This document shows positions 1-933 of a stretch of 64,000 bases of DNA, in pieces (positions within the stretch are counted from its first letter, which is position 1; each line of letters starts with the position of its first letter). The position numbers and the translations under genes are program-made. Origin of the DNA: Eledone cirrhosa. Taxonomy: Eukaryota. Under the pieces are notes generated by a model. It was given only the letters and a program-made list of their open reading frames with translations, ran no database searches and was not told the origin of the DNA. The DNA is taken from positions 125,860,001 to 125,924,000 of the forward strand of contig OZ024740.1 in assembly GCA_964016885.1 (NCBI GenBank), given 5' to 3'.

Positions 1-34
1 ATCTATACTTACAGACGTAAAATGGCAACTGCCT

Positions 35-218
35 GGTGCCTAGACAAGTTTAAATTTCAAAATTCAAACCTTTTCAGCAGATAGGGCGGAACTTCAAAAG
101 ATAAACCTGTTTCACAAGGGATGGTATACTAATGAAATAATTAATTAATTACGGAACAACTATTTATAAAATAATTATTAGTGAAGTAATCAATTTTCTG
201 TGATCTTCGGTAGGCACC
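35..218 (-). ncRNA. Type I hammerhead ribozyme candidate, large variant (inverted copy of 440-623)
   Basis: Mirror of 440-623 with the same CCGAAGA core. Confidence 0.65.
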
Positions 219-439
219 CAGAAATTAAAGTCACTTCTCCTTGTATTTGACTACTAAACTGAAATTAATCTGCTCCTCCGGTAGAGCTGAATTCATAATC
301 ACATATTTACGGCTGTTATTTCTTGCGCCATGGATATGAGCCAGAATGCTGAGAAGGTCGTGTGCAAAAGCACATGTATTAGGCTTGCGACAGATCAGTC
401 TTAAGATTATTATCTTAGGAGAAGTGACTTTAATTTCTG

Positions 440-623
440 GGTGCCTACCGAAGATCACAGAAAATTGATAACTTCACTAATAATTATTTTATAAATAGTT
501 GTTCCGTAATTAATTAATTATTTCATTAGTATACCATCCCTTGTGAAACAGGTTTATGTTTTGAAGTTCCGCCCGATCTGCTGAAAAGGTTTGAATTTTG
601 ACATTTAAACTTGTCTAGGCACC
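440..623 (+). ncRNA. Type I hammerhead ribozyme candidate, CCGAAGA core, long stems II and III
   Basis: Stem I GGTGCCTA(440-447)/TAGGCACC(616-623); core CCGAAGA 448-454; GAAA 545-548; stem III ACAGGTTTA/TAAACTTGT; GTC cleavage triplet 613-615. Confidence 0.7.
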
Positions 624-858
624 AGGCAGTTGCCATTTTATGTCTGTAAGTATAGATTTAATATTTAATATTTTCTAGATCGATACAGGCGGACTATATG
701 TACTTGAATTAAGGTATTTCTATCTGGCTAAAAAATGATTGTCATTTTGCAAAAAAAACAACAACACATTAGTGTTAATCATATTTTTTAAAATTGTAAT
801 GTAATGCTCAGAAGTATTTTCTTAGAGCTTAATATTTGTAATTGACTACTAAACTGAA

Positions 859-933
<75 letters not shown>

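Follow-up and report, generated by a model that had tools for sequence, protein, structure and literature searches.

A stretch of 64,000 nt from the genome of Eledone cirrhosa (contig OZ024740.1, positions 125,860,001 to 125,924,000 of the forward strand; referred to here as the window) begins with a non-coding repeat in which a hammerhead-like junction can be read. The locus raises the question of whether this junction is a working ribozyme, which would make the repeat an independent large retrozyme as originally predicted, or whether the repeat is copied by other means and carries the junction as a relic. In this study, the window was analyzed together with the genome to which it belongs (about 3.0 Gb). 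With slightly better than even confidence, we read the repeat, designated the 595 family, as being written into (TA)n tracts by a Penelope-like element (PLE), and the hammerhead as a weakened derivative of those of Penelope elements and retrozymes that is predicted to be dispensable for copying.

Positions 1-860 of the window make up the right-hand portion of an insertion of 1.6 kb, in which a non-coding repeat with a unit of 591-595 bp forms two arms (Table 1). The arms are inverted (1-241 versus 417-657, 241 nt each, 98% complementary, with a spacing of 175 nt), and the inverted arms noticed in the original prediction are the two arms of this single insertion. Both carry the hammerhead-like motif, as had been claimed. 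Positions within the unit were numbered as q = window coordinate - 240, so that q1-q595 corresponds to window 241-835. The whole minus arm is 982 nt long (1.65 units, q177 to q563) and begins 739 nt upstream of the window (C1:125859261); its 3′ end lies at q563, a short-form site, against (TA)n. The plus arm re-reads its first ~25 bp, again as claimed, with 836-860 copying 241-265 (24/25 identical, offset 595), and ends at the long-form site q25, position 860, also against (TA)n. The insertion obeys a rule of one long and one short 3′ end, which holds for most pairs in the family as described below.

Search of the genome with the unit gave 115 listed matches, including head-to-tail runs with a period of ~591 and inverted neighbours. 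An exact 26-mer around the core had 107 matches and its reversed control had none; a 23-nt hairpin (806-828) had 194 matches at no more than 1 mismatch, and its control also had none. Based on these two counts, the family is estimated at about 100-200 units, with 3′ parts more numerous than 5′ parts. Dispersed copies number about 100-200, are spread over many chromosomes and are all embedded in TA repeats; a tandem array of at least 5 full units was found on C1714. Unit size across the family was 591-595 bp. Both the head-to-tail multimers and the permuted ends that had been anticipated were seen among the genome copies, and BLAST of the unit against the window detected nothing else alike, in agreement with an independent repeat family. 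No open reading frame (ORF) of 50 or more amino acids was present in a five-unit family array. The subfamilies are alike in age, private divergence being 1.7% for B, 2.2% for A1 and 2.0% for A0. C>T and G>A substitutions were about 4 times as frequent as the others, and no sense-strand A>G excess of the kind left by RNA editing was observed (A>G, 38; T>C, 59).

Arms were called against a multimer of the unit at 96 loci, which yielded 156 non-redundant arms. The 3′ ends of 138 of these fell into two narrow classes, one at q25 (77 arms, 64 of them exactly at q25) and one at q544-566 (61 arms, with 26 at q558 and 22 at q563), leaving 18 outside both. The two sites (q558-563 and q25) are 57-62 nt apart and flank the conserved hairpin, for which the bin q576-595 showed a divergence of 0.004. 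A TA-repeat 3′ flank was present in 127/156 arms and a head-to-head partner in 109/156. Among 55 head-to-head pairs, 43 consisted of one q25 and one q560 end; q560 was paired with q560 in 1, q25 with q25 in 0, and the other 11 had an unclassified end. By comparison with these 3′ ends, the 5′ ends are spread over the unit and the inner ends differ from locus to locus, like 5′ truncation. The shortest arm measured 0.05 units and the longest at least 3; among the first 103 arms, a sample that favours full-length copies, 47 exceeded one unit. The short-form end was mostly subfamily-specific: B-type arms stop at q558 followed by C, and A-type arms at q563. This shift of 4-5 nt accompanies an A/C difference at q559 (for example in L006, L012, L017 and L001), with L020 as an exception. 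Matches resembling PLE ORFs occurred in 11 of the 96 loci, none of them contiguous with an arm and the nearest 100 nt away, which fits two kinds of element both targeting TA repeats. A CTGAAGA consensus always attached to a PLE ORF, the contrary picture considered in the original prediction, was not what was found: the consensus differs, and no arm is joined to a PLE ORF.

Table 1. Coordinates of the features of the 595-family insertion at the start of the window
Feature	Positions	Strand	Remarks
Minus-arm inner part	1-241	-	q417 down to q177
Second hammerhead-like motif, minus arm	35-218	-	Core 26-mer at 194-219, minus strand
Plus arm, 620 nt	241-860	+	q1-q595 plus 25 nt of the next unit
Stem I 5′ strand GGTGCCTA	440-447	+	Sequence; invariant or nearly so in 68 distinct rows
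Core strand CCGAAGA (C3 C4 G5 A6 A7 G8 A9)	448-454	+	C versus consensus U at position 4
Helix II region, 90 nt, AU-rich	455-544	+	Sequence
GAAA box (G12 A13 A14 A15.1)	545-548	+	GAAA retained in 69-71 of 70-71 copies
Stem-loop III, 67 nt	548-614	+	9-pair base, 548-556 with 606-614, including one G.U
GUC triplet	613-615	+	Predicted cleavage after C615, between q375 and q376
Stem I 3′ strand TAGGCACC	616-623	+	8 perfect pairs with 440-447
Short-form 3′ end sites	798-803	+	q558-q563
Conserved hairpin GCTCAGAAG...CTTAGAGC	806-828	+	Between both 3′ end sites; paired in the minimum free energy (MFE) fold
Tail end, repeat of 241-265	836-860	+	Long-form 3′ end q25 at 860
(TA)n microsatellite, insertion target	861-1143		Sequence

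In a lizard PLE, an AT-rich target is cut on both DNA strands, each strand is extended, and two adjacent sites in a stem-loop inside the RNA serve as starts of reverse transcription, the stretch between them being the "tail" (Frangieh et al. 2024, PMC11167929). The 595 family shares with PLE insertions (PMC11167929; Craig et al. 2021, PMC8557442, in part; sources marked "in part" are represented here by a portion of their text) the 5′ truncation, partial tandems, an inverted 5′-truncated copy and a tail at one end, as well as a stem-loop with an internal start site on either side, a target that is AT-rich or (TA)n and, upstream of these sites, a hammerhead-like motif. Because the tail, the inverted 5′-truncated copy, the partial tandem and the AT-rich target match these published marks, the family is likely mobilised by a PLE. 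Of the two templates proposed in the original prediction for the one-unit-plus-overlap form, circular or pseudo-long-terminal-repeat (pLTR) type, it is the pLTR type that was borne out, the long-form "tail" 3′ end being typical of Penelope-like insertions. A PLE resident in the window (16116-16955) provides a supporting case, as it follows the same end rule with a tail of ~63 nt. The 595 family differs from PLE insertions in having no reverse transcriptase/endonuclease ORF and no sequence similarity to an autonomous partner among the window PLEs; its tail is 57-62 nt, compared with a published 30-40 bp and the ~63 nt of the resident PLE. When the tail region was compared with the 3′ ends of PLEs or retrozymes in the window, the scores lay within the shuffled nulls.

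The following route of copying can be proposed. The plus strand would be transcribed, and a PLE protein would bind near the hairpin (q566-588) and cut both strands of the TA repeat. Each DNA end would prime complementary DNA (cDNA) at one of the two internal start sites, and reverse transcription would proceed toward the RNA 5′ end, past one unit on a multimer or circle template. Head-to-head joining of the two cDNAs would follow, in many cases at short homologies. In such a scheme, self-cleavage after C615 would be slow or protein-dependent. In vitro, PLE insertion was unaffected in hammerhead mutants (PMC11167929). PLE clades that lack canonical hammerheads spread well, with (TA)n as their target (PMC8557442, in part).

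The arms constrain the template. Arms longer than one unit occur, and therefore a multimeric or circular template is needed. The 3′ ends of the arms lie off the cut site, which excludes as template a linear cleaved monomer that is primed at its own 3′ end. Within one insertion, units on the same strand diverged by 2.4% (36 pairs) and units on opposite arms by 2.9% (25 pairs), compared with 5.0% between loci. Circle and multimer models both fit these figures. Contigs from three sequencing runs of one sample contributed short pieces of 60-230 nt that contained no usable joints or ends, and they favour neither side.

The elements of a type I hammerhead described in the original prediction, namely the 8-bp stem I, CCGAAGA, GAAA, GTC and the 9-bp base of stem III, could all be read in the window sequence. 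G12 A13 A14, the A15.1-U16.1 pair (A548-U614) and a non-G at position 17 (C615) are present and were retained in 69-73 of 70-73 copies. The junction is rarer than chance, and every intact copy has both stem I and stem III. An exact CTGANGA core is absent from the window copy. A loose scan of both strands, with dimers of three subfamily copies, gave weak combinations, among the matches listed, as candidates for a better hammerhead elsewhere in the unit.

Three versions of the core were observed. Among the 100 listed of the 107 exact 26-mer matches, 52 had CCGAAGA, 44 UUGAAAA and 4 CUGAAGA; for the 87 in aligned loci, the respective numbers were 42, 36 and 4, with 5 singletons or doublets. The U4C core is carried by three successive A-type sub-lineages. 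The four CUGAAGA copies belong to different sub-lineages and have no rare variant in common except the base at q519, an indel-prone column, in 1 of 6 comparisons, and one of them adjoins a CCG unit within one arm. The lack of common rare variants and this CCG neighbour indicate that the four are independent CpG decays that took place after insertion. The canonical core is found in no lineage that spread. Since the catalytic core is non-standard, the window copy likely cuts itself poorly if at all.

Covariation was examined in an alignment of 77 copies (68 distinct rows). C3-G8 was the sole pair changed on both sides, with CG in 41 rows, UA in 26, UG in 1 and an unpaired state in 0; the one U.G row, L025, likewise stands between the subfamilies at further diagnostic sites. 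Of six lineage-diagnostic changes in the 192-nt motif, three are located in the 7-nt core, and two of these three preserve the 3-8 pair. The switch of this pair may count, on comparison of the copies, among the signs of hammerhead ancestry. Both U3-A8 and an unpaired base on the 5′ side of helix II have been reported as natural variants of PLE hammerheads (Cervera and de la Pena 2014, PMC4209133, in part). No compensatory change was found in the helices of the 68 distinct rows; the helices are almost invariant, and for this reason the alignment is neutral on their structure.

Helix II was the least regular part of the motif. Its base is ambiguous, as first noted, and two possible weak registers of 2-4 pairs can be read: one has a U455.U544 mismatch followed by C456-G543 and A457-U542, and the other has A457-U544, C458-G543, A459-U542 and G460.U541. 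These possible pairs never vary among the 68 distinct rows. A U.U mismatch at the base of helix II has been reported in an axolotl retrozyme hammerhead (PMC7229834, in part) and could also be read in two other hammerhead motifs of the window. Energy-based folding in which stems I and III were imposed and the core was kept unpaired did not yield a closing helix II. The ~90-nt AU-rich region reported for stem-loop II is present; the single stem-loop is not, and the window copy folds there into several small hairpins. Most family members have in this region an AU-rich hairpin of ~64 nt that is unclosed at the core and, in most copies, set off from it, with 5 and 20 unpaired bases in between; in the window copy this hairpin is broken by a private T>A at 470. 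For the window copy, the hammerhead-competent fold costs 5.4 kcal/mol over the MFE fold, in which the core is partly sequestered. An active ribozyme and RNA circles are putative for the family and unlikely for the window copy.

Several observations weigh against the reading of a PLE-written family with a dispensable hammerhead. The 5′ ends of the arms crowd just past the predicted cut, with 24/156 at q371-400 and 8/156 at q301-370, and 4/156 lie exactly at q376, the first base after it. As a hint, such a pile-up would fit an RNA 5′ end made by cleavage. Across 47 distinct family sequences, the hammerhead-competent fold costs a mean of ~2.2-2.7 kcal/mol for the two main cores, so that an active fold would be possible in typical copies given this small cost. 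As to ancestry, the switch from C3-G8 to U3-A8 is one inherited event and not many, and the 3-8 covariation could be drift, because each of the three changes in the core is a C>T or a G>A, and these substitutions are the commonest in the family. An autonomous PLE with a similar 3′ region was not found, the comparison being with the PLE 3′ ends in the window.

The 5′ ends deserve closer description. Position q376 is among 8 of the 595 positions with at least three 5′ ends, and at two of its four ends the arms meet in the 8-nt palindrome of stem I. Stronger hot spots are located at q490 (9 ends) and q455 (6 ends). The remaining cluster, at q383-398, directly follows stem I and a small GGCAGUUGCC hairpin on their 3′ side; stalling of the reverse transcriptase there might explain it, and a transcription start in the same region fits the same pattern of 5′ ends. 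The nine arms with a 5′ end at q490 (L049-L051, L062, L074, L075, L089 and L096) begin in an A-rich stretch, and the arm-to-arm joint at this position often has an expanded poly(A)/poly(T) run, which suggests slippage or homopolymer joining.

The best surviving alternative is an active large retrozyme, in which multimers would be cleaved after C615, 595-nt circles would be formed, and rolling reverse transcription by a PLE would give arms longer than the unit. This is consistent with the rarity of the hammerhead geometry, the covarying 3-8 pair with its U.G intermediate, the 5′ ends around q376, and arms of 1.0 to at least 3 units beside an array of at least 5, although most source copies are shorter than 1.5 units. 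The plus-strand unit also folds better than its shuffled versions (z -3.25, with 0/100 shuffles as good), and the minus-strand unit does not (z -1.38, 8/100 as good). Animal retrozymes are known to make circles (PMC7229834, in part). Against these points stand the U4C change in 52 of the 100 listed copies, the confinement of the canonical core to non-propagating copies, the unclosed helix II, the partly sequestered core of the window copy, the position of the insertion 3′ ends away from the cut site, and the palindrome that accounts for two of the four q376 ends. Furthermore, all single CUGA-turn mutants were of low activity when scanned by deep mutagenesis, and the 3-8 pair was rescued solely by a G:C swap (PMC9901934, in part). 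On this balance we regard an active retrozyme as unlikely.

Somewhat more doubtful is a coincidental likeness, that is, a junction that is an ordinary structure serving stability, a promoter or protein binding, in a family that never had a ribozyme, as reported for Naiad-type PLEs. In its favour, neither lineage has a canonical core, helix II is unformed at its base, and the helices are almost invariant without compensatory change; PLE clades lacking canonical hammerheads, as mentioned above, do well in (TA)n. Search of Rfam at the gathering threshold for the window, and at E≤10 for window 1-3000 and a family array, returned no ribozyme family. This blank is weak evidence, because Rfam also missed other motifs of the window that were read as hammerheads. 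Rarity was tested with a descriptor allowing no more than 1 core mismatch and requiring GAAA, A15.1-U16.1, a non-G at position 17, at least 7 pairs in stem I and at least 6 in stem III, with stem II left free. Its sole match in the window was the 595-family motif, one per arm, compared with 3 matches in 30 dinucleotide-shuffled windows at thresholds looser than the observed 8- and 9-pair stems. In the ~350 kb of family loci outside the family arms, 2 weak matches (no more than 1 core mismatch) were found, and none at the observed stringency in this real flanking DNA. These figures are generous to the motif, because the descriptor was written after the motif had been seen. Also telling against coincidence are the three of six lineage-diagnostic changes that lie inside the 7-nt core, two of them preserving the 3-8 pair, and the window itself, in which 19 matches to CTGANGA-N(6-30)-GAAA were counted versus 1.03 expected from shuffles, so that elements with a hammerhead are the norm locally.

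A natural hammerhead able to function with a C4 or U3-A8 core and a branched helix II of 90 nt, perhaps requiring a Penelope protein to hold it, with both cores functional in one young family and the 3-8 pair switching via U.G, is an improbable combination when taken as a whole. A DNA-level structure, whether foldback, palindromic satellite or terminal-inverted-repeat DNA transposon, might account for the 241-nt inverted repeat of 98% identity and the local tandem arrays, but it is rejected as highly improbable from the end structure of the arms, given that the outer ends are not mutual inverted copies (q563 versus q25), the inner ends vary by locus as in 5′ truncation, and about 100-200 copies are dispersed on many chromosomes, each in a TA repeat.

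Compared with known systems, the 595 family resembles the metazoan non-LTR (long terminal repeat) retrozymes (Cervera and de la Pena 2020, PMC7229834, and Li, Clavereau and Pollet 2026, preprint 10.64898/2026.07.22.740005, both in part) in its non-coding, low-GC monomers, dimers and multimers, in having one type I hammerhead-shaped motif per unit, and in residing in a PLE-rich genome. The unit was called large in the original prediction; at ~595 bp it is not unusual, as it falls inside the published 51-972 bp range of animal retrozyme consensus lengths (Li et al. preprint, in part). The family differs from these retrozymes in its C4 or U3/A8 core, its 90-nt branched helix II with an unstable base, its long stems I and III, and its modest number of ~100-200 units. 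Metazoan retrozymes are moreover defined functionally, by self-cleavage and circles, both of which are putative in the 595 family.

The minimal PLE hammerheads (PMC4209133, in part) share with the 595 family the type I topology, the U3-A8 core (in subfamily B), the unpaired nucleotide or nucleotides on the 5′ side of helix II and a low expected activity. They have a helix II of 7-8 bp, a helix I of 4-5 bp and almost no helix III, and they act as dimers; the 595 family has instead a helix I of 8 bp, a helix III of 9 bp on a 67-nt hairpin and an unstable helix II base. With the plant LTR retrozymes (Cervera et al. 2016, PMC4918200, in part), the family shares a similar size of the putative RNA unit, plant circles being 600-1000 nt. 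The type III hammerheads in LTRs, the primer binding site, the polypurine tract and the mobilisation by LTR retrotransposons described for plants have no counterpart in it.

Other elements were also seen in the window. A 5′-truncated PLE lies at 1144-2665, with a (TA)n tract on each side; its ORF is present as two pieces that differ in frame (1194-1847 and 1811-2164), the second giving a weak GIY-YIG match (E 8.4e-4, below the Pfam cut-off) with a CX4CxxC motif upstream, and a minimal hammerhead core at 2370-2398. The resident PLE at 16116-16955 is likewise inserted in (TA)n as two arms, and its hammerhead cores lie at 16349-16377 on the minus strand and at 16752-16780 on the plus strand. The plus arm stops at 16955 and the minus arm extends ~63 nt further, the tail being on one arm only. 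Four copies of one hammerhead motif (11686, 12645, 14285 and 25091) have a helix II of 3 bp with a U.U mismatch at its base. Exact 30-mers of the 25091 type numbered 116 genome-wide, in an array plus dispersed copies. The array is large (C28:30.53-30.73 Mb), with spacings often of 467, 468 or 546 nt, and the 467-nt array unit of this canonical-hammerhead family is not colinear with the dispersed copies. A perfect inverted repeat (25898-26939 and 26982-28023; 1042 nt, 100% complementary, arms 42 nt apart) resembles an insertion of another element, two-armed and very young. No motif was found by a loose hammerhead scan of 25800-28800, so that the 591-bp family mentioned in the original prediction was not located.

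What is new here is an independent family of PLE-dependent, retrozyme-like non-coding elements, the oddities of which are the non-canonical cores and the branched helix II. The family is a clean, countable example of the Penelope insertion signature. Its three core versions on a near-identical scaffold make up a natural test set with which it would be cheap to ask whether a canonical core is required in the hammerheads of PLEs. Should the motif be inactive, such elements would spread without a working ribozyme, in agreement with the in vitro result for the lizard PLE.

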